This document shows, piece by piece, positions 38,581-51,800 of a stretch of 64,000 bases of DNA. The DNA is from TPA_inf: Saccharomyces. Lineage: Eukaryota. The translations under genes and the position numbers were made by a program. Within the stretch, counting starts at the first letter, position 1, and each line of letters opens with the position of its first letter. The stretch is from contig BK006939.2 of NCBI GenBank assembly GCA_000146045.2, forward strand, positions 64,001 to 128,000, read 5' to 3'. The notes below the pieces were generated by a model. It was not told where the DNA came from. It ran no database searches and worked only from the letters and a program-made list of their open reading frames with translations.

Positions 38581-41500
38581 TCACCTTTTTAGTTTTACAG
38601 GATCGAAAAAATCTATGGTCTTGTATGGTGAATGATCTATATGTCTTCTCTTTGAATTTCTAGCTAGCTCATCAAAGCCGCTTTCATTTATTCCAGTCTC
38701 TTTACTCACGGAATATTGTTTAGTAACATTTCGCATGCTTTTCTCAGACCTTCGAAAAGCTCTTTTACATTCGAGCTTGATCTTTTTGTAATCATGCAAC
38801 GTTCTCATCCACAGCTCACCAATGAATTCCGATATTATATAAATTTGGCCCTCAGTACCGCAAAGTAAAAATAGAGGTATGACGCCTTCCAACCTTTGAC
38901 TATTGAAATTTGGACATATTTGAAGGTTTTGAAATCCATCTGGGATGGCCGCCAGTGAGATTATCTTATTAGGTAACCGAATTTTGAGGTATGGCATAGC
39001 CAACCCGCCCTTATCAACTGATAATTTAGAATCTTCGTATATTGTCAAGGTATTATCAATACCAATGGTGGCAACATAAGATCTATTGGAATATTTCAAC
39101 GTTGCACAAGAAAGGTCTGATAATCGACCTAATAGATAGTTCTTATCACTCGCTAAACAATCGTTTTTAGGTTCTCTTAGCTTCTTAGGAATTATTTTAG
39201 TCGCCACTTGTGTAATGCTTCCCAACCGCTTAAAACCCAAGTAGGGACATTCAGGGTACTCTGATGGATATACTATGGACGTCCTAATTGGAAAGCGGGT
39301 TCTCAAAAAATCTCTCAAGATCTCAAATTGAACCAGATAATCACCACTCATATAAGCTGGAAGACCTATATGGTTAATCGATGAAAGTGCTGGGAAGGAA
39401 TAGGCCTCTAAAATTTCCGCGCCCTCTTTTAGCATGTTTATTTTATATGCTGCTATGCCACTATCACCAGAAAATAAAACCAAGTTGCACTCATAGTATA
39501 TGAACACCGAGAATATACAATCTTCGAGATAATTCGCGTACAATTGGGTAATGTTATTGTTTCTAATTTCAAACAGCCAGAATTTTGTACGTTTTTCACC
39601 AACTCCTAAGCATACAACAAACTTATTACCATAAAAGGGTCTCTGTGATAAGTAGATTGAGTTTTGTTCTGGCCACAGTGGCTTCACAACGGCATGTAAA
39701 TACTTTTCATCCGAGAAACTGAATGTGGAAACTGCCTTCATTGAAGCATAATTGAATAGCATCAACTTATACTGCCTACTATTGCTATCGACCAAACACA
39801 CCACGGCCTGATTGAGGTTATTTGGAACAGTATAGAGCTCTACGGGAATGCTAGGGAGGTAAAAGATATGATTTTCTAATTGAGGTTTTAATGAAGTCAT
39901 CTGCTTAGTGAAACCTTCACGGTAAAACGTGCTACCAAACTCAAAGATGCTTATTCGAGAATCATAATCTAAAACACAAAGAGAGAACAGTGCTTTACCG
40001 GGTCGAATTCTCATTCGTCTTGGAACTAAGCCTAACTGTATGCAACCATAAGACATGTTTTGAAGATTTAACAAAATTATTTCCTTATCGTTGTAAAGGA
40101 AAACCAAAGGTAAGGAAGGAATCGTATCCAACAGTTCTAATTTCTGATCGTATAACGAATGAATCTCTAAATCCACTCTCAAAAAATTTGATTCTGATTT
40201 GTAGACTCTTACGCAGCCAGTGTATGATGATGCGATGACATAAATCGAGTCGTGTTTATGCTTTTTGCTTAGCCAAGATATTTTTATCAATTGATCATAG
40301 GCTATGAAAGAATAGTCTGGATGTGATGTAGCCACTTTCTTTTGATTGGCATTCCATACCGAAAACACACCGTCCAAGTAAATGACAAAAAGGTATTTCT
40401 CGGCACCATCTGAGAAACAGCTCACAATACTCTCTTTAGAATTGAGCCCATGGATAAAAAATTCTTCTTTTTTACGTAGAAAACCAGATTTTGCCTCAAG
40501 TATCGAAATCCTGAGCTTGGAGTTCTGTACGGGATAACAAAACATGGTGGAAGAGTTGTGGTTCGACTGCAAGAAATCGACCTGCCTAAATTCTCCGGTA
40601 GAACCATCCATACCGGCTTTCAAAACTTTTCCCGTCCTAGAAACAAATAGACCGTAATCATAAGGCTCATCCATTAAAAATATTCCGTTCTTATAAATCA
40701 ACCCACCTGATTCATATGCAAATTCGTCACCACCATTAAGTGCTAAATCTGTAACCCAAAAATCAGTTACATTCTCTACTAGCGCTTTGGAGGAAGTCAC
40801 TAACTTGAACAGGGTTTTGTCATATACCAAAATTTTCTTTTCTAAAAATCCTCTTCTTGAGTTAAAACTTCCACCCAAAAGCAGTGAATCAATATCTGTC
40901 CCCTTGTTTCCAATAACTTGTGATGCCAGGTAAACTTTGTTTGTATAAGCGGGACCGCTTTTCACCTTTTCTAATTTTGAACCTCGATGATCTTTCGATA
41001 TAAAATTTACTCCATTTATTCTTGTCACCGCTATATACTTTTCACGTGGGAGCTGCAAAATAACATCGCATAGATCATGTTTAGGAGGCTTGAACACTCT
41101 TTCTTTTGTCCATTGTAGTTCTTTCAGGACGTGGTCTCTATGTAACGACCTAGTGTGTATCTTGGCAGTGTATTTGTTAGCATACACGTCAGAAATTGTC
41201 AAGAGAATGACTGATCTTTCATATATCACATCATAAGAATCTTTTAGAAATTGGTAGTTTTCTACATTTGGGAGACCTTTATTATTGAAAAAAGCCCCGT
41301 TTGTAAGCCCACTTGCTTTTATATTTATTATTTGAGTGTAGTTAGTAGTCAACACTACAATGGTATGGCCGCAAACTACCTTCATATAACAAAATTCATT
41401 ATCACATATCGGCAAAAGATTGTATTGGCGGTACTCGTTTAAATCAAATTTCCTACTTCCATGCTTTCCAGCAAGATTGTATTCCTTTAAAAACAGGTTT

Positions 41501-42159
41501 TCACTATAGCAACTCTTAAGTAGGCAAAGAAAATAAACGTGTGATTTACCTGTGCATGTGGCGTCGTCAAGCAAATCCTCCCTGCTAATAAAATCAAAGG
41601 AGATAATTTCTTCGCCATCGGTGGCATAAAATCTTTCGACTATTCCTTCTCTGAAGTCAAAGGAGTAAATTGTCGTACATAACGTATGCAAATCACTATC
41701 ATATGATATGTTTTTATTGCAAGTGTATAAAACACCCTCAAAGGAAGCATTTAACCAGCTGGAAGTTAATAAAGAAATAGTATCCAGTTTCGGAGCCACA
41801 TTAGAGTCGTAGATAATTTCAAATTTGTTATTTTCGCATTTGAATCCCTTAATGGAACCGTCGTTAAACATTAGCAGGTGACAGAAGGAAGCTGACATGA
41901 ACATCGGTACAGTTGCGTAGTTAACAACGAACGGTCCATCTAAAGCGAACTCAACCTTCGCTTTCAATTCGTTGGACGTTCCGGTATACAATCCATAGCT
42001 AAAACATAAAAAGTAACTTCCTTCGTGATGAAGACAACTTACCAGCTTCTCAGCCTCATCTTTTGATCTATAAGATGTTATGCATAAAGGTAAAAAGGCC
42101 GAATTGCTATCCAATTTTTTGCAGTCCGTTTCATCTTGTCTTGCCATTTTACGTGGCAA
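38581..42159 (-). CDS. YEL025C: Large uncharacterised protein (about 1190 aa). The maximal ORF is shown; the annotated start may be the second Met, 4 codons in (giving 1188 aa, start 42147).
   Basis: Single uninterrupted minus-strand ORF of 1192 codons with yeast-like codon usage and no recognisable catalytic motif by eye. Position matches YEL025C. Confidence 0.8.
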   Translation of the reverse strand: MPRKMARQDETDCKKLDSNSAFLPLCITSYRSKDEAEKLVSCLHHEGSYFLCFSYGLYTGTSNELKAKVEFALDGPFVVNYATVPMFMSASFCHLLMFNDGSIKGFKCENNKFEIIYDSNVAPKLDTISLLTSSWLNASFEGVLYTCNKNISYDSDLHTLCTTIYSFDFREGIVERFYATDGEEIISFDFISREDLLDDATCTGKSHVYFLCLLKSCYSENLFLKEYNLAGKHGSRKFDLNEYRQYNLLPICDNEFCYMKVVCGHTIVVLTTNYTQIINIKASGLTNGAFFNNKGLPNVENYQFLKDSYDVIYERSVILLTISDVYANKYTAKIHTRSLHRDHVLKELQWTKERVFKPPKHDLCDVILQLPREKYIAVTRINGVNFISKDHRGSKLEKVKSGPAYTNKVYLASQVIGNKGTDIDSLLLGGSFNSRRGFLEKKILVYDKTLFKLVTSSKALVENVTDFWVTDLALNGGDEFAYESGGLIYKNGIFLMDEPYDYGLFVSRTGKVLKAGMDGSTGEFRQVDFLQSNHNSSTMFCYPVQNSKLRISILEAKSGFLRKKEEFFIHGLNSKESIVSCFSDGAEKYLFVIYLDGVFSVWNANQKKVATSHPDYSFIAYDQLIKISWLSKKHKHDSIYVIASSYTGCVRVYKSESNFLRVDLEIHSLYDQKLELLDTIPSLPLVFLYNDKEIILLNLQNMSYGCIQLGLVPRRMRIRPGKALFSLCVLDYDSRISIFEFGSTFYREGFTKQMTSLKPQLENHIFYLPSIPVELYTVPNNLNQAVVCLVDSNSRQYKLMLFNYASMKAVSTFSFSDEKYLHAVVKPLWPEQNSIYLSQRPFYGNKFVVCLGVGEKRTKFWLFEIRNNNITQLYANYLEDCIFSVFIYYECNLVLFSGDSGIAAYKINMLKEGAEILEAYSFPALSSINHIGLPAYMSGDYLVQFEILRDFLRTRFPIRTSIVYPSEYPECPYLGFKRLGSITQVATKIIPKKLREPKNDCLASDKNYLLGRLSDLSCATLKYSNRSYVATIGIDNTLTIYEDSKLSVDKGGLAMPYLKIRLPNKIISLAAIPDGFQNLQICPNFNSQRLEGVIPLFLLCGTEGQIYIISEFIGELWMRTLHDYKKIKLECKRAFRRSEKSMRNVTKQYSVSKETGINESGFDELARNSKRRHIDHSPYKTIDFFDPVKLKR

Positions 42160-43259
42160 TGGCTAGTGCAATATGCAATGCGCTAACGCTGACATTATAA
42201 CACAATATATTTTTCTACCCTCCCTTTCGCTGAGTTGCGACCAGAATGTCTGTTTTTCAGTCATGTATTTCTTTCCGCTTTAGGCGTTCAGGCAAGCGCG
42301 TTCAGTTGAAAGCAAATAGAACCTATAACGACGAATACGCTTAAAGGAAGTATACAGGAAATAGAAAAAGAAGCGTACTGCATGTACTAAAAACCAAAAA
42401 AAACACCACATCGGCTCTCTGGTTGTATCCATACTTTCCCTAAAATTTTGTAACTCAAGAAAATACCTACATAAAACGATAATCAGTGGATTGCACTGAT
42501 CAAGTCGAAAAACTCCGTACATGCCCGTCTATCCCTGTCTCATCCATATAAACTGAACTAGGTAGAAAAAAATACCTACCCTTTCTTTAACCGCCTGGTA
42601 TATTAAATACCATTGTCAATTGAGAAGCTAACAGCCATTGTAAGAGTTATGTCCAGTGTCCGACTAAGACAAGGTAACCATACGTTGATAGCTATGAATA
42701 CCCCAGAGGAAGATTATTCTTTCTCATAAATCCTTTTTATTGGTTTCAAAAATCCACCAATAAGTTCATATAGCTTGGGCGGCTATTCATGCGTAATATA
42801 ATGTGCATGAAGTACGACCCATCGACTCTTAGAGCAAATGCTTCCTAAATTGAAATAACTAGCCGCCTTTAATTCGAGCCTTCTTGTCATCTTGTGTATT
42901 TCATCCTTTCAACTTCTCCTGTTCCACCTTTCACTCTAAGCTTCCCTATCATTTGGCCTCTTTCAGGTTCGTCCATAGCGCATCTTTTTCCTTTTAGACA
43001 CTCCATAACGGACCAATCAGCGTTTTGCGCCATTTATCGGTCTTGGGTCACGTGCGGCGACGCGGAGGCTCCCTTATAAGGACTGGAAAAAGACCTGCAA
43101 GAACTATAGTTGGTTCTTGAATATCAAGTAATATATTACTTCTCTGTCGTAACTTTTTGTTGCTTTCAAGTTCAACGTCTTTTAAAAACCAAGAAATTAT
43201 TGAACATAAATAATATCACTCTAACACTTATTAGGAAACCGAAAGGAGCAATAACAAAC

Positions 43260-43907
43260 ATGTTAGGAATAAGATCATCTGTCAAGACCTGCTTCAAGCC
43301 AATGTCTTTAACTTCCAAAAGACTGATTTCTCAATCTTTGCTGGCTAGCAAATCCACGTACAGGACCCCAAATTTTGATGACGTTTTAAAGGAAAATAAC
43401 GATGCTGATAAAGGCCGTTCTTATGCTTACTTTATGGTCGGTGCTATGGGTCTTTTGTCATCTGCAGGTGCCAAATCAACCGTAGAAACCTTTATTTCAT
43501 CTATGACCGCTACTGCCGATGTTTTGGCTATGGCTAAAGTTGAAGTTAATTTAGCGGCTATCCCATTGGGTAAAAACGTGGTTGTCAAATGGCAAGGTAA
43601 GCCTGTGTTCATTAGACACAGAACTCCTCATGAAATTCAGGAAGCCAACAGTGTGGATATGTCCGCTTTGAAGGACCCACAGACCGATGCTGACAGAGTC
43701 AAAGACCCTCAATGGTTAATTATGCTGGGTATTTGTACTCACTTAGGTTGTGTTCCAATTGGTGAAGCCGGTGATTTTGGTGGTTGGTTCTGTCCTTGCC
43801 ATGGTTCACATTATGATATTTCCGGTAGAATCAGAAAGGGACCTGCCCCCTTAAACTTAGAAATTCCTGCTTATGAATTCGATGGTGATAAGGTCATTGT
43901 TGGTTAG
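43260..43907 (+). CDS. RIP1: Rieske iron-sulfur protein of cytochrome bc1 complex, 215 aa (start at internal Met MLGIRSS...)
   Basis: Rieske 2Fe-2S boxes CTHLGC and CPCHGSHYD, plus a mitochondrial presequence. 215 aa from the ATG at 43260. The track ORF extends 50 codons upstream. Confidence 0.96.
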   Translation: MLGIRSSVKTCFKPMSLTSKRLISQSLLASKSTYRTPNFDDVLKENNDADKGRSYAYFMVGAMGLLSSAGAKSTVETFISSMTATADVLAMAKVEVNLAAIPLGKNVVVKWQGKPVFIRHRTPHEIQEANSVDMSALKDPQTDADRVKDPQWLIMLGICTHLGCVPIGEAGDFGGWFCPCHGSHYDISGRIRKGPAPLNLEIPAYEFDGDKVIVG

Positions 43908-44503: not shown

Positions 44504-46552
44504 CTAAAGCGATTCATCTTGCTGTAGGTATATTTTTAAATCATCTGGAATATCTGTCCAGGAATTACTATCCCAGTCCATGAATTTCTTTTTTAATTGG
44601 GAGTATTTACTGTCAAATAATCTTGAATTGTATGTCGTTGCAAAATAACTTGCTTTTTGACCCATGTGGAGTTCCTGCCCTTCCTCATTATCAAAAAAGC
44701 CCCCATTGATTTCACTCCCGTTGCTATTATCTTGCTTATCATATTTATTTGAAACTTTATTACTTTTTAAATCAATACCTTCCAAATCTTGGAACAATTG
44801 CCTTACATATTCCGGCATATTGTCCGGTCTATACCTACGATCAAACTTAATTCTCCAATAGACTGACCAATGTAAACTGACATATTCGGGTACATAACGA
44901 GATCTTCCGAGGTTAGGTGTATGAAAATTTTGCCACTTTCCTTCTTTATTTTCCATTCGTATTCCAATGGGGAGCAGTTCCAATACCCACCACACCAATC
45001 TCATAAATTTATTTGCATGTCCACATTTAAGAGTAAAAGCATCCTTCACTTTTTCTTTTTCATCTTTCAAGCTCAATCTAGTCTCTTTTATATTTTTTAG
45101 ACAATCTTCCATTCTCTCATTTCTGCCAGATTTATCCTCTCGGGCTCCATCCTCATTATCACTCACTCCTAGTAGGGAACATTTCTTTGGTGAGTTGAAA
45201 CTAAGGTAATCATGTGTGTCTGCGAATAAAGATCCAATCGAAGTGTGTTTGGTAGCGAAATCATGTATTGCACCAGGTTTGAATTTAACACCAAATTTGA
45301 TTGCCTCTGCTAAAATCCATCGCAGCGTTAAATTTGACAAGTTCTCTTCTGTCTCACAGTCAGGCGCCCAACCTCCACCAACGTCAGAATGATCACCTGG
45401 AAACCATTTTTCAATCAAGTCGGGTGTCATAGTCATTCTACTTGATGTACCGCTGCCTTGGATAGATTGAAGTTGGAAAATGGCTTCAATTCCTCTTGTT
45501 GAACATTCTGTATCTCTCGCGTATGAATTACCTTCTAAGAATGAGTTCAGGTCCAACAGCAACTCTGTAGTTTCCTCGCTTTTGCTCGATAACAACCTTC
45601 CAGGGTTATCAGGAATGAGTGGAGAAGGATTACTAATAGAATGTGCGCCACTTTTTAAAGTGTATTTTATCAAAGGATTTTCCGGGGTTAGATCACGCAT
45701 TAATGCATTAGAAGTTGGCACCGGCGAACACTGGTCAGTTATATGATTACAATATGTCAATGAAAATAGTTTCGGAATGTACGGCATCGGAGTGAAACAT
45801 AACTGCTTGAATTTTCCACGTCTTTCATCCAAGGATACGCAATGTCGAACATGCTCAACGATATTGCTTCTCTGGGTGCAAGGAAACAACCTGTCCCTTA
45901 ATATTCCAACTGAGTTCACAGAATCGAATAAGCCTTGAAAATGTATCTTTACCTCGTAATCCCTAGAGAATGTTTTCTTGAATTCTTCAGCCAAGGTACT
46001 TGTGTACTGTAATTCATTAGGCTGCGAATCGTATTCCCATTTTTCATAGATTTGCCATGCCATTTTAACCATTTCTTCCAAACCTTTACTCAAAAGTCCG
46101 ACTCTTTCAATCATTCCAGCAAGAACTCTTGCAATAAAAGCTCCTCTAGAAAAGCCAAACATATAAATTCTATCTCCTGGTTCAAAATACTTCATCAAAA
46201 AAAGATATGCAGAACATATGTGATTGTCTAAACTGAATGCGAACATAGAATCTAATAAATTTTGTAAGTGAGAAATAGTTAACCGTCTTCTGACATCAAC
46301 AACAGCGTCAAATCCAACTGAACCAATTCCAGGTTGGTAATAACAAATTTGTTCAGAACTATCACCGTTCTCAAGAAGGTTGTACAATTTTAAAATATTA
46401 GTGAATGGCTGAGGTCCAAAATTTTCTCTTGTTCCATCAAAACAAAGAATGATATTCTTGCCAGACGATGAATGTGAGGATGGATTTATACTTCTGTCGC
46501 CTCCCGTCCCATTTTTTTTATATTTTCCATGAATATAATTGAAGCTATCCAT
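44504..46552 (-). CDS. YEL023C: Uncharacterised 682-aa protein with a DUF2235 / Tle1-like alpha/beta-hydrolase core (GFSRG nucleophile elbow, HSDVGGG motif)
   Basis: Motifs read directly from the translation: YMFGFSRGAFIARVLAGM (Ser codon at 46148-46150) and WFPGDHSDVGGGW. Length and position match YEL023C. Confidence 0.85.
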   Translation of the reverse strand: MDSFNYIHGKYKKNGTGGDRSINPSSHSSSGKNIILCFDGTRENFGPQPFTNILKLYNLLENGDSSEQICYYQPGIGSVGFDAVVDVRRRLTISHLQNLLDSMFAFSLDNHICSAYLFLMKYFEPGDRIYMFGFSRGAFIARVLAGMIERVGLLSKGLEEMVKMAWQIYEKWEYDSQPNELQYTSTLAEEFKKTFSRDYEVKIHFQGLFDSVNSVGILRDRLFPCTQRSNIVEHVRHCVSLDERRGKFKQLCFTPMPYIPKLFSLTYCNHITDQCSPVPTSNALMRDLTPENPLIKYTLKSGAHSISNPSPLIPDNPGRLLSSKSEETTELLLDLNSFLEGNSYARDTECSTRGIEAIFQLQSIQGSGTSSRMTMTPDLIEKWFPGDHSDVGGGWAPDCETEENLSNLTLRWILAEAIKFGVKFKPGAIHDFATKHTSIGSLFADTHDYLSFNSPKKCSLLGVSDNEDGAREDKSGRNERMEDCLKNIKETRLSLKDEKEKVKDAFTLKCGHANKFMRLVWWVLELLPIGIRMENKEGKWQNFHTPNLGRSRYVPEYVSLHWSVYWRIKFDRRYRPDNMPEYVRQLFQDLEGIDLKSNKVSNKYDKQDNSNGSEINGGFFDNEEGQELHMGQKASYFATTYNSRLFDSKYSQLKKKFMDWDSNSWTDIPDDLKIYLQQDESL

Positions 46553-47420
46553 CTAATGGATATTATGTTAGTGTATTATTTTTTATAAGTTACATCACCT
46601 GTTTGCTGTTATTTTACTACATCTGTCTGAAGTACATTAATTTGTGGCGGTTTAACAGTATATTGAATGTGACAAACACACCCAGACACCTCAATAGACA
46701 ACAGGAGGGCCATTACCATAATTTCATAACATTAAATATTCCAAGTAACATTTTTCAGAAGACGAAGAAAGACTAATTAACAGGATAATAAATATTAACA
46801 TTATCTTTTAAGTACCATACTTGAAGCGTCAATTGATGTATGTTTGGTTTTCCACTATTTTCCTAAAAGCATGAATCTTTTCTAGGCAAAAAATTGGAAT
46901 GACGACTCCTGATCGTTAAAATGGAAGACAAACACTAGAAGTTGACTTCAAAAAAACTTCTTTCATTAAATAAGGGAAATATCCGGCCGGCTCATACTGA
47001 TAATATACCAGCAACATTTACAGGAAACTGCAGGTTTTAGGCAGTGTGGCGAACCGCAAATAAAGTAATAAACAACAATTTCAAACGGAAAGGACTCCTC
47101 TGCTAAAGATTTGATGTTTTTAAGTTCTTTTATAGTTTATATTGGCATAAGAGGTAAACCATATTTAGCACTTATTTTCATAAAGTATTAGAAGTGTTCT
47201 TATATATTTCATTACCCGACTTGAAAAATACTACGCGGTTCATTGCGAGAACCTTCAATAAGTGTCGAAAGAGCACCTACATTGGCGTTTAAATAATAAA
47301 CACACCAACCTACATATTACGTTGAATTTAAATTCTTTCACTGCTTGTAAACCATAGACAATAAACTGATTAATTTAGTATCTAAAAAATCTTTTAAAGG
47401 GAAAGAGAAGAGGCGGAAAG

Positions 47421-50400
47421 ATGAGTGATAGGGAATTCGTCACGGTAGATCCCGTCACTATCATAATCAAAGAATGCATTAATTTATCGACAGCGATGCG
47501 GAAATACTCTAAATTTACCTCTCAATCTGGAGTGGCCGCTTTGCTGGGGGGAGGAAGTGAAATATTTAGCAATCAAGATGACTACTTGGCTCACACATTC
47601 AACAATTTGAATACCAACAAGCACAATGATCCATTTTTATCTGGATTCATTCAGTTAAGACTTATGTTGAATAAACTGAAAAATCTAGATAATATAGATT
47701 CACTAACCATATTGCAGCCATTTTTATTAATTGTGAGTACAAGTTCCATTTCTGGTTACATCACTTCCCTGGCCCTGGACTCTTTGCAGAAATTCTTTAC
47801 CTTGAATATCATCAATGAATCATCGCAAAACTATATTGGTGCACACAGGGCGACGGTAAATGCTCTAACACATTGTAGGTTTGAAGGATCTCAACAACTT
47901 TCTGATGATTCAGTTCTTTTGAAAGTCGTGTTTTTACTGCGTTCAATCGTCGACTCACCTTACGGAGATTTATTATCAAACTCTATCATATATGACGTAT
48001 TGCAAACGATTCTTTCATTGGCTTGTAATAACAGAAGGAGCGAAGTCCTTAGGAATGCTGCACAATCAACAATGATAGCCGTTACCGTAAAGATTTTCTC
48101 AAAACTAAAGACTATTGAGCCTGTTAATGTGAATCAAATATACATCAATGATGAAAGTTACACAAATGATGTATTGAAGGCCGATACAATTGGCACAAAT
48201 GTAGAATCCAAAGAAGAAGGAAGTCAAGAAGATCCCATCGGCATGAAAGTGAATAATGAGGAAGCTATTAGCGAGGACGATGGCATTGAAGAAGAGCATA
48301 TTCATTCAGAGAAGAGCACAAATGGCGCCGAACAACTAGATATTGTGCAAAAAACAACAAGATCAAATTCCAGGATCCAAGCGTATGCTGATGATAACTA
48401 TGGATTGCCCGTGGTTAGGCAATATTTAAACTTATTACTATCATTGATTGCGCCAGAAAATGAATTAAAACATTCATACTCCACTAGAATATTTGGCCTA
48501 GAGTTAATTCAAACGGCATTAGAAATTTCAGGTGATCGATTGCAGCTATACCCACGGCTTTTTACACTGATATCAGATCCTATTTTCAAAAGCATTTTGT
48601 TTATCATACAGAACACTACAAAATTATCACTACTTCAAGCTACATTGCAGCTATTTACTACTCTAGTTGTTATATTGGGCAACAACTTACAATTACAGAT
48701 CGAGCTCACTCTAACAAGAATATTTTCTATTCTTTTAGATGATGGTACCGCAAATAACTCGAGTTCTGAAAATAAGAACAAGCCATCAATAATAAAGGAA
48801 CTTCTAATTGAGCAAATATCCATCTTATGGACTAGGTCGCCATCTTTTTTTACTTCTACTTTTATCAATTTCGATTGTAATCTCGATAGGGCAGACGTTT
48901 CCATAAACTTTTTGAAGGCTTTGACTAAATTGGCCTTACCAGAATCCGCCTTAACTACCACAGAAAGTGTACCACCCATTTGCCTTGAGGGATTGGTCTC
49001 CCTAGTCGATGATATGTTCGATCACATGAAGGACATTGACAGAGAAGAATTTGGCAGGCAAAAGAATGAAATGGAAATCTTAAAAAAGAGGGACCGTAAA
49101 ACAGAGTTTATTGAATGTACCAATGCATTCAATGAAAAGCCCAAAAAGGGTATTCCGATGTTAATAGAAAAAGGTTTCATTGCTTCCGACTCCGATAAAG
49201 ATATTGCGGAGTTTCTTTTCAATAATAACAACCGTATGAATAAAAAAACAATCGGTTTGCTACTTTGCCATCCGGACAAAGTAAGCTTGTTGAATGAATA
49301 TATTCGTTTGTTTGATTTTTCAGGGTTAAGGGTCGATGAAGCTATTAGAATTTTGTTGACGAAATTTAGGTTGCCTGGTGAATCGCAACAAATTGAAAGA
49401 ATCATCGAAGCCTTCTCGTCTGCGTATTGTGAAAATCAAGATTACGATCCATCCAAAATCAGTGACAACGCGGAGGATGACATTTCTACTGTTCAACCAG
49501 ACGCTGATTCTGTTTTCATTTTAAGTTATTCAATTATTATGTTGAACACTGACCTACATAACCCTCAAGTGAAGGAACACATGTCATTTGAAGATTACTC
49601 TGGTAACTTAAAGGGATGCTGTAATCACAAAGACTTCCCATTCTGGTATTTGGATAGAATTTACTGTTCAATCAGAGATAAAGAAATTGTTATGCCTGAA
49701 GAGCACCACGGCAACGAAAAGTGGTTTGAAGATGCTTGGAATAACTTGATATCTTCAACTACTGTTATAACTGAAATAAAAAAAGACACACAATCTGTCA
49801 TGGATAAATTAACACCCTTGGAGCTTTTGAACTTTGATAGAGCAATTTTTAAACAAGTTGGCCCAAGTATTGTCAGTACTTTATTCAACATTTACGTAGT
49901 TGCATCTGATGACCATATATCTACCAGAATGATAACAAGTTTGGACAAATGTTCCTATATTTCCGCATTTTTTGACTTCAAAGATCTCTTTAATGATATA
50001 CTAAACTCCATTGCTAAGGGCACTACTTTGATTAATTCAAGCCATGACGATGAACTTTCAACTTTAGCTTTTGAATATGGCCCAATGCCACTGGTGCAAA
50101 TTAAATTCGAAGACACTAACACTGAGATCCCGGTTAGTACAGATGCTGTTAGATTTGGTAGATCATTTAAGGGTCAACTAAATACAGTTGTTTTTTTCCG
50201 GATTATTCGCAGGAACAAAGATCCTAAAATTTTCTCCAAGGAATTATGGTTAAACATTGTTAATATTATACTAACATTGTACGAAGACTTGATTTTGTCT
50301 CCTGATATTTTCCCTGATTTACAAAAAAGACTGAAATTAAGCAACTTGCCTAAGCCATCTCCTGAAATTTCTATTAACAAGAGCAAAGAAAGCAAAGGTC

Positions 50401-51800
50401 TCTTATCAACATTTGCTTCTTATTTAAAAGGTGATGAAGAACCCACAGAAGAGGAAATCAAATCCTCAAAAAAAGCGATGGAGTGCATAAAGTCGAGTAA
50501 TATTGCCGCCTCTGTCTTTGGAAATGAATCAAATATAACAGCGGATTTAATAAAAACTTTACTAGACTCCGCCAAAACTGAGAAAAACGCAGATAATTCC
50601 AGGTATTTTGAAGCAGAACTTTTATTTATCATCGAATTGACTATTGCATTATTTCTATTTTGCAAAGAGGAGAAAGAATTAGGAAAGTTCATACTTCAAA
50701 AAGTTTTCCAACTTTCTCACACGAAAGGCCTCACGAAAAGGACTGTTCGTAGAATGCTAACATACAAAATTTTGTTAATTTCGTTATGTGCGGATCAGAC
50801 GGAGTACTTGTCCAAATTAATAAACGATGAGCTGTTAAAAAAGGGGGATATTTTTACCCAAAAATTTTTTGCAACTAATCAAGGTAAGGAATTTTTGAAG
50901 AGACTATTTTCATTGACCGAATCAGAGTTTTATAGAGGATTTTTACTAGGAAATGAGAATTTTTGGAAATTTTTAAGAAAAGTTACAGCAATGAAAGAGC
51001 AGAGCGAGAGCATTTTTGAATATTTAAATGAATCGATCAAGACAGACAGCAATATTTTGACAAATGAGAACTTCATGTGGGTCCTAGGACTATTAGATGA
51101 AATTTCATCAATGGGTGCCGTTGGAAATCACTGGGAAATAGAATACAAGAAATTGACAGAAAGTGGTCATAAAATTGATAAGGAGAATCCATACAAGAAA
51201 TCGATCGAATTATCATTGAAATCCATTCAACTAACATCACACTTGCTGGAAGATAATAACGATCTGCGTAAAAACGAGATATTCGCTATTATTCAAGCTT
51301 TGGCACATCAATGCATCAATCCGTGTAAGCAGATAAGTGAATTTGCAGTGGTAACGCTAGAGCAGACGCTCATCAATAAAATCGAAATTCCAACTAATGA
51401 GATGGAATCGGTAGAAGAATTAATTGAGGGCGGATTACTACCGTTGCTAAATTCGAGTGAAACACAGGAAGACCAGAAAATCCTCATTTCATCCATATTA
51501 ACAATAATTTCAAATGTTTATTTGCATTATTTGAAACTAGGGAAGACAAGCAACGAAACGTTTTTGAAAATTTTGAGTATTTTCAATAAATTTGTAGAGG
51601 ACTCAGATATTGAAAAAAAGCTACAGCAATTAATACTTGATAAGAAGAGTATTGAGAAGGGCAACGGTTCATCATCTCATGGATCTGCACATGAACAAAC
51701 ACCAGAGTCAAACGACGTTGAAATTGAGGCTACTGCGCCAATTGATGACAATACAGACGATGATAACAAACCGAAGTTATCTGATGTAGAAAAGGATTAA
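47421..51800 (+). CDS. GEA2: Arf guanine-nucleotide exchange factor of the GBF1/Gea family (Sec7 domain), 1459 aa
   Basis: The Sec7 catalytic region includes the FRLPGESQQIERI motif with the glutamic finger. 1459 aa matches GEA2 (YEL022W). Confidence 0.93.
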   Translation: MSDREFVTVDPVTIIIKECINLSTAMRKYSKFTSQSGVAALLGGGSEIFSNQDDYLAHTFNNLNTNKHNDPFLSGFIQLRLMLNKLKNLDNIDSLTILQPFLLIVSTSSISGYITSLALDSLQKFFTLNIINESSQNYIGAHRATVNALTHCRFEGSQQLSDDSVLLKVVFLLRSIVDSPYGDLLSNSIIYDVLQTILSLACNNRRSEVLRNAAQSTMIAVTVKIFSKLKTIEPVNVNQIYINDESYTNDVLKADTIGTNVESKEEGSQEDPIGMKVNNEEAISEDDGIEEEHIHSEKSTNGAEQLDIVQKTTRSNSRIQAYADDNYGLPVVRQYLNLLLSLIAPENELKHSYSTRIFGLELIQTALEISGDRLQLYPRLFTLISDPIFKSILFIIQNTTKLSLLQATLQLFTTLVVILGNNLQLQIELTLTRIFSILLDDGTANNSSSENKNKPSIIKELLIEQISILWTRSPSFFTSTFINFDCNLDRADVSINFLKALTKLALPESALTTTESVPPICLEGLVSLVDDMFDHMKDIDREEFGRQKNEMEILKKRDRKTEFIECTNAFNEKPKKGIPMLIEKGFIASDSDKDIAEFLFNNNNRMNKKTIGLLLCHPDKVSLLNEYIRLFDFSGLRVDEAIRILLTKFRLPGESQQIERIIEAFSSAYCENQDYDPSKISDNAEDDISTVQPDADSVFILSYSIIMLNTDLHNPQVKEHMSFEDYSGNLKGCCNHKDFPFWYLDRIYCSIRDKEIVMPEEHHGNEKWFEDAWNNLISSTTVITEIKKDTQSVMDKLTPLELLNFDRAIFKQVGPSIVSTLFNIYVVASDDHISTRMITSLDKCSYISAFFDFKDLFNDILNSIAKGTTLINSSHDDELSTLAFEYGPMPLVQIKFEDTNTEIPVSTDAVRFGRSFKGQLNTVVFFRIIRRNKDPKIFSKELWLNIVNIILTLYEDLILSPDIFPDLQKRLKLSNLPKPSPEISINKSKESKGLLSTFASYLKGDEEPTEEEIKSSKKAMECIKSSNIAASVFGNESNITADLIKTLLDSAKTEKNADNSRYFEAELLFIIELTIALFLFCKEEKELGKFILQKVFQLSHTKGLTKRTVRRMLTYKILLISLCADQTEYLSKLINDELLKKGDIFTQKFFATNQGKEFLKRLFSLTESEFYRGFLLGNENFWKFLRKVTAMKEQSESIFEYLNESIKTDSNILTNENFMWVLGLLDEISSMGAVGNHWEIEYKKLTESGHKIDKENPYKKSIELSLKSIQLTSHLLEDNNDLRKNEIFAIIQALAHQCINPCKQISEFAVVTLEQTLINKIEIPTNEMESVEELIEGGLLPLLNSSETQEDQKILISSILTIISNVYLHYLKLGKTSNETFLKILSIFNKFVEDSDIEKKLQQLILDKKSIEKGNGSSSHGSAHEQTPESNDVEIEATAPIDDNTDDDNKPKLSDVEKD

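Follow-up and report, generated by a model that had tools for sequence, protein, structure and literature searches.

YEL023C of Saccharomyces cerevisiae, a predicted serine hydrolase of the DUF2235/Tle1-like family with a conserved fungal C-terminal module and a candidate link to sporulation

What does the yeast gene YEL023C do? It lies on the reverse strand of a 64,000-nucleotide stretch of Saccharomyces cerevisiae DNA (contig BK006939.2, positions 64,001 to 128,000; this whole stretch is the window, and its coordinates are used throughout), it is one of the S. cerevisiae genes that still lack a function, and its product, an exact match to YEL023C / YEC3_YEAST of strain S288C, is named uncharacterised in every source. 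An original prediction had assigned this open reading frame (ORF) of 682 residues to the DUF2235, or type VI secretion system (T6SS) Tle1-like, hydrolase family on the strength of two motifs, GFSRG and HSDVGGGW, and had called it a target for enzyme discovery. The only characterised members of that family are bacterial toxins that attack membranes. Judged from its sequence, YEL023C is very probably an active serine hydrolase of the family, and we lean slightly toward a sporulation-induced lipid hydrolase that takes part in outer spore wall assembly as the best explanation as a whole. The gene and its catalytic domain are as follows.

44504..46552, reverse strand: YEL023C coding sequence, 682 residues plus stop (from the ORF list and translation, with an ATG start and identity to S288C).

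45305..46459, reverse strand: alpha/beta-hydrolase catalytic domain, PF09994 (DUF2235 / T6SS_Tle1-like_cat), residues 32-416, split by a variable insert.

The match to Pfam model PF09994 (T6SS_Tle1-like_cat, formerly DUF2235, also Tox-ABhydrolase-1) spans residues 32-416 and profile positions 1-287 of 287, with E=2.2e-84 and a score of 283.6 bits where the cut-off is 27. A search of the PDB with the single sequence was weak, giving a best E=0.16 to 4o5p, yet three motif blocks were nonetheless aligned. A profile built from 36 fungal orthologs reached the Xanthomonas oryzae phospholipase TleB (9j3f) at E=1.1e-10, Pseudomonas aeruginosa Tle1 (4o5p) at 2e-9 and enteroaggregative Escherichia coli (EAEC) Tle1 (6sjl) at 6e-4. 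Foldseek, given the predicted YEL023C fold, returned 4o5p, 4m0m and 9j3f as its best matches, and the structural model shows a predicted Tle1 fold for the catalytic domain (residues 32-258 plus 376-450). The full-length profile match and the nearest structural neighbors both bear out the family originally proposed. The assignment is already public in precomputed Pfam results, in UniRef names ([quoted passage not shown] on orthologs) and in Zhang et al. 2012, where ascomycete and basidiomycete members of the PF09994-type family (Tox-ABhydrolase-1) are listed; the Nakaseomyces glabratus ortholog is named "Uncharacterized alpha/beta hydrolase domain (DUF2235)" at NCBI. By itself, then, family assignment adds nothing beyond Pfam and UniProt, and as an enzyme-discovery lead YEL023C is correct and reasonable, if unsurprising. 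New here are a residue-level mapping of the catalytic triad, a fungal C-terminal module, a conserved candidate promoter element and a tie to published spore-wall genetics.

Four motif blocks carry the catalytic assignment.

46430..46444, reverse strand: CFDGT motif, residues 37-41 (Asp39-Gly40, the "DG" signature element), followed by Thr51-Asn52; matched in TleB and Tle1 by the FDGT(N)N block.

46142..46156, reverse strand: nucleophile elbow GFSRG, residues 133-137, with proposed catalytic Ser135 (codon TCT, 46148-46150); aligns to fGfSRGa of TleB and to P. aeruginosa Tle1.

45905..45931, reverse strand: LFDSVNSVG block, residues 208-216, with proposed catalytic Asp210 (codon 45923-45925); aligns to GiFDtVaSVG of TleB and GLFDTV of Tle1.

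45368..45400, reverse strand: PGDHSDVGGGW block, residues 385-395 (GxHxD signature), with proposed catalytic His388 (codon 45389-45391); its counterparts are PGvHSDVGGG in TleB and the corresponding block in Tle1 and EAEC Tle1.

The elbow sits inside YMFGFSRGAFIARV (residues 130-143) and HSDVGGGW occupies residues 388-395, so that the ORF length, both motifs and the position of the Ser135 codon are all as first described. The family signature given by Zhang et al. 2012 includes an N-terminal DG(T) and [ST]N, and Asp39-Gly40-Thr41 and Thr51-Asn52 satisfy both. For TleB the triad is Ser240-Asp280-His347, according to the paper that describes it, in which the wild type, S240A and H347A were compared by ultra-performance liquid chromatography assays; the deposited chain numbers these residues 36 higher, as 276, 316 and 383. 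Aligned by profile, the three TleB columns coincide with YEL023C Ser135, Asp210 and His388, which places the acid and the base as well as the nucleophile that the original prediction had singled out. Toxicity of P. aeruginosa Tle1 likewise requires a Ser-Asp-His triad. Conservation was counted over covered columns in two alignments, one of 36 yeast and other fungal orthologs and one of 52 distant homologs from across the Dikarya. Ser135 is kept in 34/34, Asp210 in 36/36 and His388 in 36/36 sequences of the first (and Asp39 in 32/32), while in the second the counts are 37/37, 46/46 and 50/52. The alignments thus show Ser135-Asp210-His388 to be a complete, conserved putative triad that matches experimentally validated bacterial ones. 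Because this triad is intact and strongly constrained, YEL023C is almost certainly an enzyme, insofar as sequence conservation can tell. Each condition under which the original prediction would have failed (no significant profile match, a triad that cannot be aligned, or one not conserved among fungal orthologs) turned out in its favor.

Likeness to the bacterial proteins is confined to this catalytic part. TleB (a T6SS phospholipase with both phospholipase A1 and A2 activity) has the Pfam domain, all four motif blocks and the triad in common with YEL023C, but it is a secreted toxin encoded beside genes for VgrG, a DUF4123 chaperone and a Tli immunity protein, a context that YEL023C lacks, and nothing was detected in the yeast protein that corresponds to its "shovel-like" C-terminal domain. 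P. aeruginosa Tle1 (PA3290, a T6SS phospholipase A2) reads RLYIYGFSRGA, FLGLFDTV and PGVHSDVGGG where YEL023C reads RIYMFGFSRGA, FQGLFDSV and PGDHSDVGGG. Tle1 works in the target bacterium's periplasm and carries a C-terminal membrane-anchoring module of about 430 residues (D2-D4), whereas the C-terminal region of YEL023C is about 230 residues long, fungal-specific and without sequence or fold similarity to D2-D4. The Legionella pneumophila protein lpg2422 (4m0m), also bacterial and 17% identical to YEL023C, has no assigned activity and is therefore uninformative about function. No vgrG-, hcp-, PAAR-, adaptor-like or Tli immunity ORF was found in the flanks of YEL023C, and neither NCBIfam nor PADLOC gave a match. 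YEL023C shares the domain family but does not belong to the T6SS effector class.

Column conservation together with the predicted local distance difference test (pLDDT) score of the structural model divides the protein into a variable N-terminal tail (residues 1-31), a first core part (32-258), an insert (259-375), a second core part (376-450), a linker (451-512), a conserved module (513-582), a variable stretch (583-655) and a conserved end (656-682). The second core part runs past the end of the Pfam match to a near-invariant HDxL at residues 447-450. Three of the segments outside the catalytic core are placed as follows.

45428..45778, reverse strand: variable insert, residues 259-375, between the Asp and His strands; low column conservation, pLDDT below 50 over most of its length.

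44807..45016, reverse strand: conserved fungal C-terminal module, residues 513-582, consisting of a WWxLExxP helix, a beta-hairpin, a PNxGRxR loop, an HWS helix and YRPxN.

44507..44587, reverse strand: conserved C-terminal end, residues 656-682, the tail of a long helix followed by a W...(I/V)PDDL motif; supported by conservation and by pLDDT of about 88-93 in the full-length model.

The insert is about 100 residues longer than in the bacterial enzymes and is mostly predicted to be disordered, with one helix at residues 322-341; compared with TleB, YEL023C has about 110 more residues between the Asp and the His. It is nevertheless constrained within Saccharomyces, where the ratio of nonsynonymous to synonymous substitution rates (dN/dS, or omega) falls at 0.10-0.13 for the insert, compared with 0.01-0.06 for the core, 0.03-0.08 for the module and 0.17-0.25 for the linkers.

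The C-terminal extension had been described as about 250 residues without obvious homology. The length holds (266 residues follow the Pfam domain), but the second half of the description does not, since residues 513-582 form a module that is as constrained as the catalytic core and is found throughout the Dikarya. Seven of its residues (W521, E525, N547, R552, H561, Y574 and P576) are invariant among the 36 orthologs, its W, E and R residues are each present in 52/52 of the distant homologs, and in the conserved end P669 and D670 are each kept in 35/36. When HMMER was run exhaustively with only the module as query, 550 cluster representatives matched at E<=1e-3, of which 68 reached E<=1e-10; PF09994 co-occurred in 52/52 of the long matches tested, and named clusters with the module were fungal in 15/15 cases, coming from Saccharomycotina, Pezizomycotina, Agaricomycotina and Pucciniomycotina. 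The module had no match among Pfam families or solved structures. Pfam searches with the C-terminal 265 and 175 residues gave just a ubiquitin-like match below threshold, at E=0.13, which was dismissed, and a word-indexed protein search with an 83-residue module profile returned a self-fragment only, the method being unsuited to short divergent profiles. Absence from bacteria is indicated indirectly, because the named matches are all fungal, no Tle1 chain in the PDB matches and NCBIfam returns nothing; so far as tested, the module appears to be restricted to fungi. The C-terminal part of YEL023C stands in the place of the membrane-anchoring domains of bacterial Tle1, with no detectable similarity to them. 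The segment WWVLELLPIGI was considered as a transmembrane anchor and rejected, the hydropathy maximum falling elsewhere in the protein; an amphipathic role for it at an interface is possible.

The other fungal DUF2235 proteins, all uncharacterised, share this architecture, with PF09994 followed by WWxLExxP...PNxGRxR...HWS and with the triad kept; orthologs from the Saccharomycetaceae are longer, owing to a larger insert and linkers. In contrast to the one syntenic copy in Saccharomyces, the gene is duplicated or in tandem in some filamentous fungi and some basidiomycetes. In some basidiomycete homologs the whole unit of hydrolase plus module is tandemly duplicated: a second LCFDGT...GFSRG copy begins within the Tulasnella calospora homolog (827 residues), and the Collybiopsis confluens homolog (1033 residues) has two matches to the module profile.

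Saccharomyces has one copy of the gene, in conserved synteny and subject to strong purifying selection. The order GEA2-YEL023C-RIP1 is kept in S. paradoxus, S. arboricola and S. eubayanus (four species with S. cerevisiae), and overall dN/dS against these three other species is about 0.09. Neither a signal peptide nor a transmembrane segment was found in the product, for which the highest 19-residue Kyte-Doolittle mean is 1.28, and YEL023C is best explained as a soluble intracellular protein. Some natural S. cerevisiae isolates encode proteins of 361 residues, with a stop after residue 361, that lack His388 and the C-terminal module; shortened gene models of 202 and 675 residues are also present. 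To judge by their sequences, these shortened versions look like natural loss-of-function alleles.

The upstream region may bear on when the gene is expressed. The middle sporulation element (MSE), the type of site associated with Ndt80 and Sum1, has the consensus DNCRCAAAW. Three upstream features are pertinent.

46640..46649, reverse strand: CGCCACAAAT, candidate MSE (Ndt80/Sum1-type), about 90 nucleotides upstream of the ATG.

46666..46684, reverse strand: second conserved block, TGGGTGT(g/a)TTTG(t/a)CACATT, about 15 nucleotides upstream of the MSE.

46553..46820, reverse strand: protointron in the 5' untranslated region (5'-UTR), with 5' splice site GTATGG (46820-46815), branch point CACTAACA (46573-46566) and 3' splice site TAG (46555-46553) abutting the ATG.

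The consensus is fitted by GCCACAAAT at 46640-46648 on the reverse strand, and all of CGCCACAAAT is invariant in the four Saccharomyces species, in surroundings whose mean column identity is 70%. The YEL023C promoter therefore contains a predicted site of the kind expected in the Ndt80 (middle sporulation) regulon. In the second block, 17/19 positions are invariant across the same species, and its GGTGTnTGGGTGT stretch resembles, with one mismatch, what we take to be a Rap1-type site. A protointron in the YEL023C 5'-UTR was reported by Talkish et al. 2019 (PMC6726248), and the sequence elements found here agree with the table in that paper; the 5' splice site is not conserved in the other Saccharomyces species compared. 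The protointron contains many upstream ATGs, and the conserved MSE falls within it. This placement suggests that there may be two transcripts: in vegetative cells a long one that includes the intron, and in meiosis a short one that would start downstream of the MSE.

Two lines of published evidence, both absent from the original prediction, also point to sporulation. Expression of YEL023C rises during sporulation, according to SGD curation quoted in PMC3567487. In Table S1 of Lin et al., dityrosine fluorescence was reduced in 3/3 replicates when yel023c was combined with lds2, gat4, pes4, osw6 or osw4, and in 2/3 replicates when it was combined with api2, hul4, osw3 or dtr1. Several of these genetic partners are lipid-droplet or spore-wall factors. 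Elsewhere in the literature, Zds2 is reported as a two-hybrid partner of the protein, the gene was picked up in a stationary-phase minisatellite screen, and a single-nucleotide polymorphism in YEL023C is tied to 10 phenotypes in a genome-wide association study of 1011 S. cerevisiae isolates (PMC12583546). That paper, from 2025, still terms the gene functionally uncharacterized, in agreement with the earlier statement that the yeast protein has no assigned function.

Taken together, these observations are consistent with the following scheme. YEL023C would act inside the cell as a serine hydrolase from the alpha/beta-hydrolase superfamily (DUF2235 / Tle1-like branch); its Ser135, activated by His388 and Asp210, would attack an acyl-ester bond. 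Its substrate would most likely be a glycerophospholipid or a related lipid, by homology with Tle1 (phospholipase A2) and TleB (phospholipase A1 and A2). The C-terminal module, whose WWxLExxP helix is aromatic and amphipathic and which carries invariant polar residues, may engage membranes or lipid droplets or may act as a lid on the active site. Transcription in mid-sporulation would be driven through the conserved MSE, and the enzyme would then remodel lipids for the dityrosine-containing outer spore wall, as one member of a gene network with high redundancy. A part in spore wall formation is a tentative proposal, to which we give somewhat less than an even chance. The most inclusive version, that a bacterial toxin-type phospholipase was adopted into fungal cell biology and fused to a fungal module that governs targeting or access to the active site, and that in yeast it became an Ndt80-driven lipid remodeler redundantly required for the dityrosine layer, is speculative, and unlikely to be right in every part.

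Several points weigh against this scheme. Identity between the core of YEL023C and the bacterial enzymes is only 24-26%. Caps and lids set the specificity of alpha/beta-hydrolases, and it is here that YEL023C differs, having both the 100-residue insert and a C-terminal module unrelated to theirs. Sequences that fit the MSE pattern are common in themselves, with 27 matches in the window where 47.5 are expected; enrichment was rejected as evidence, and because the pattern is not enriched the evidence for the element is its cross-species conservation only. The link to the spore wall comes from one study, in which the primary basis for including YEL023c was given as "unpublished results", and the network that Lin et al. 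describe is very dense, with most of the tested genes interacting, so the specificity of the yel023c interactions is limited. The truncation after residue 361 in some isolates means that YEL023C is dispensable in at least some backgrounds. Finally, no published activity, substrate or localization was found for YEL023C or for any eukaryotic PF09994 member, in a literature largely outside subscription journals.

The alternative that survives best accepts a working Ser-Asp-His hydrolase or acyltransferase and gives it a substrate other than a glycerophospholipid. This could be, for example, a neutral lipid or sterol ester, a thioester (acyl-CoA or acyl-protein), or a precursor of the spore wall with a susceptible ester or amide bond. 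Structural comparison lends this some weight, as the fold neighbors of YEL023C beyond the Tle1 family are thioesterases, monoacylglycerol lipases, carboxylesterases and palmitoyl-protein thioesterases; so does the dissimilarity of the usual specificity regions, the insert (residues 259-375) and the C-terminal module, to those of bacterial phospholipases. Several of the genetic partners named above, moreover, are lipid-droplet or spore-wall factors and not phospholipid enzymes. Set against this, all biochemically characterised PF09994 members found are phospholipases A1 or A2, and profile-profile comparison by Zhang et al. 2012 places the family nearest to lipases. We consider such a substrate possible, on the unlikely side; by analogy with the characterised enzymes, a phospholipid or other lipid is the substrate that we would expect with slight confidence.

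The family is best known for T6SS and polymorphic toxin domains, which raises the prospect that fungi retain the ancestral role and use the lipase against competitors or other cells. Homologs are up-regulated in Trichoderma harzianum under conditions that simulate mycoparasitism and in Armillaria confronted with Trichoderma, and expression of a Botrytis DUF2235 gene varies with the host plant. YEL023C, however, lacks a signal peptide, a transmembrane segment and any domain associated with secretion, it has no immunity-like neighbor, its single copy, conserved GEA2-RIP1 synteny and purifying selection show none of the rapid diversification typical of conflict genes, and its regulation and genetics indicate sporulation. 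A conflict toxin is, on this evidence, very improbable. Least probable of all is a catalytically dead scaffold, its fold kept for binding only, a notion prompted by the lack of a reported activity and by the Zds2 interaction: a pseudoenzyme has typically lost one or more of its catalytic residues, whereas the triad and the DGT, GFSRG, FDxV and GxHxDxGGG motifs are unchanged in all covering yeast orthologs (among distant fungi two sequences lack the His), and core omega is 0.01-0.06.

The preferred reading, a lipid hydrolase induced in sporulation, has consequences beyond a single gene. Because no eukaryotic member of the family has been characterised, a substrate for YEL023C would give a function to the family across ascomycetes and basidiomycetes, and if the protein does prove to be a fungal lipid remodeler, this would be the first function assigned to DUF2235 proteins of eukaryotes. 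The hypothesis can be tested from three starting points: the conserved candidate Ndt80 site, the dityrosine phenotypes of the double mutants, and a C-terminal module with invariant polar residues.

The genes around YEL023C were identified from domains and gene order. Sec7 domains in the ORF at 47421-51800 (forward strand) and Rieske and UCR_TM domains in the ORF at 43110-43907 (forward strand) are consistent with flanking genes GEA2, encoding a Sec7-domain guanine nucleotide exchange factor for ADP-ribosylation factor (ARF-GEF), and RIP1, encoding the Rieske protein. A further ORF of 1192 residues at 38581-42159 (reverse strand), listed from a TTG start, had no Pfam match at E<=1e-5; judged by conserved gene order it is probably YEL025C, a gene without a recognisable domain. 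For the RIP1 ORF the ORF finder gives 265 residues from a TTG, and since its orthologs in three species are called at 215 residues, the true start is an internal ATG.

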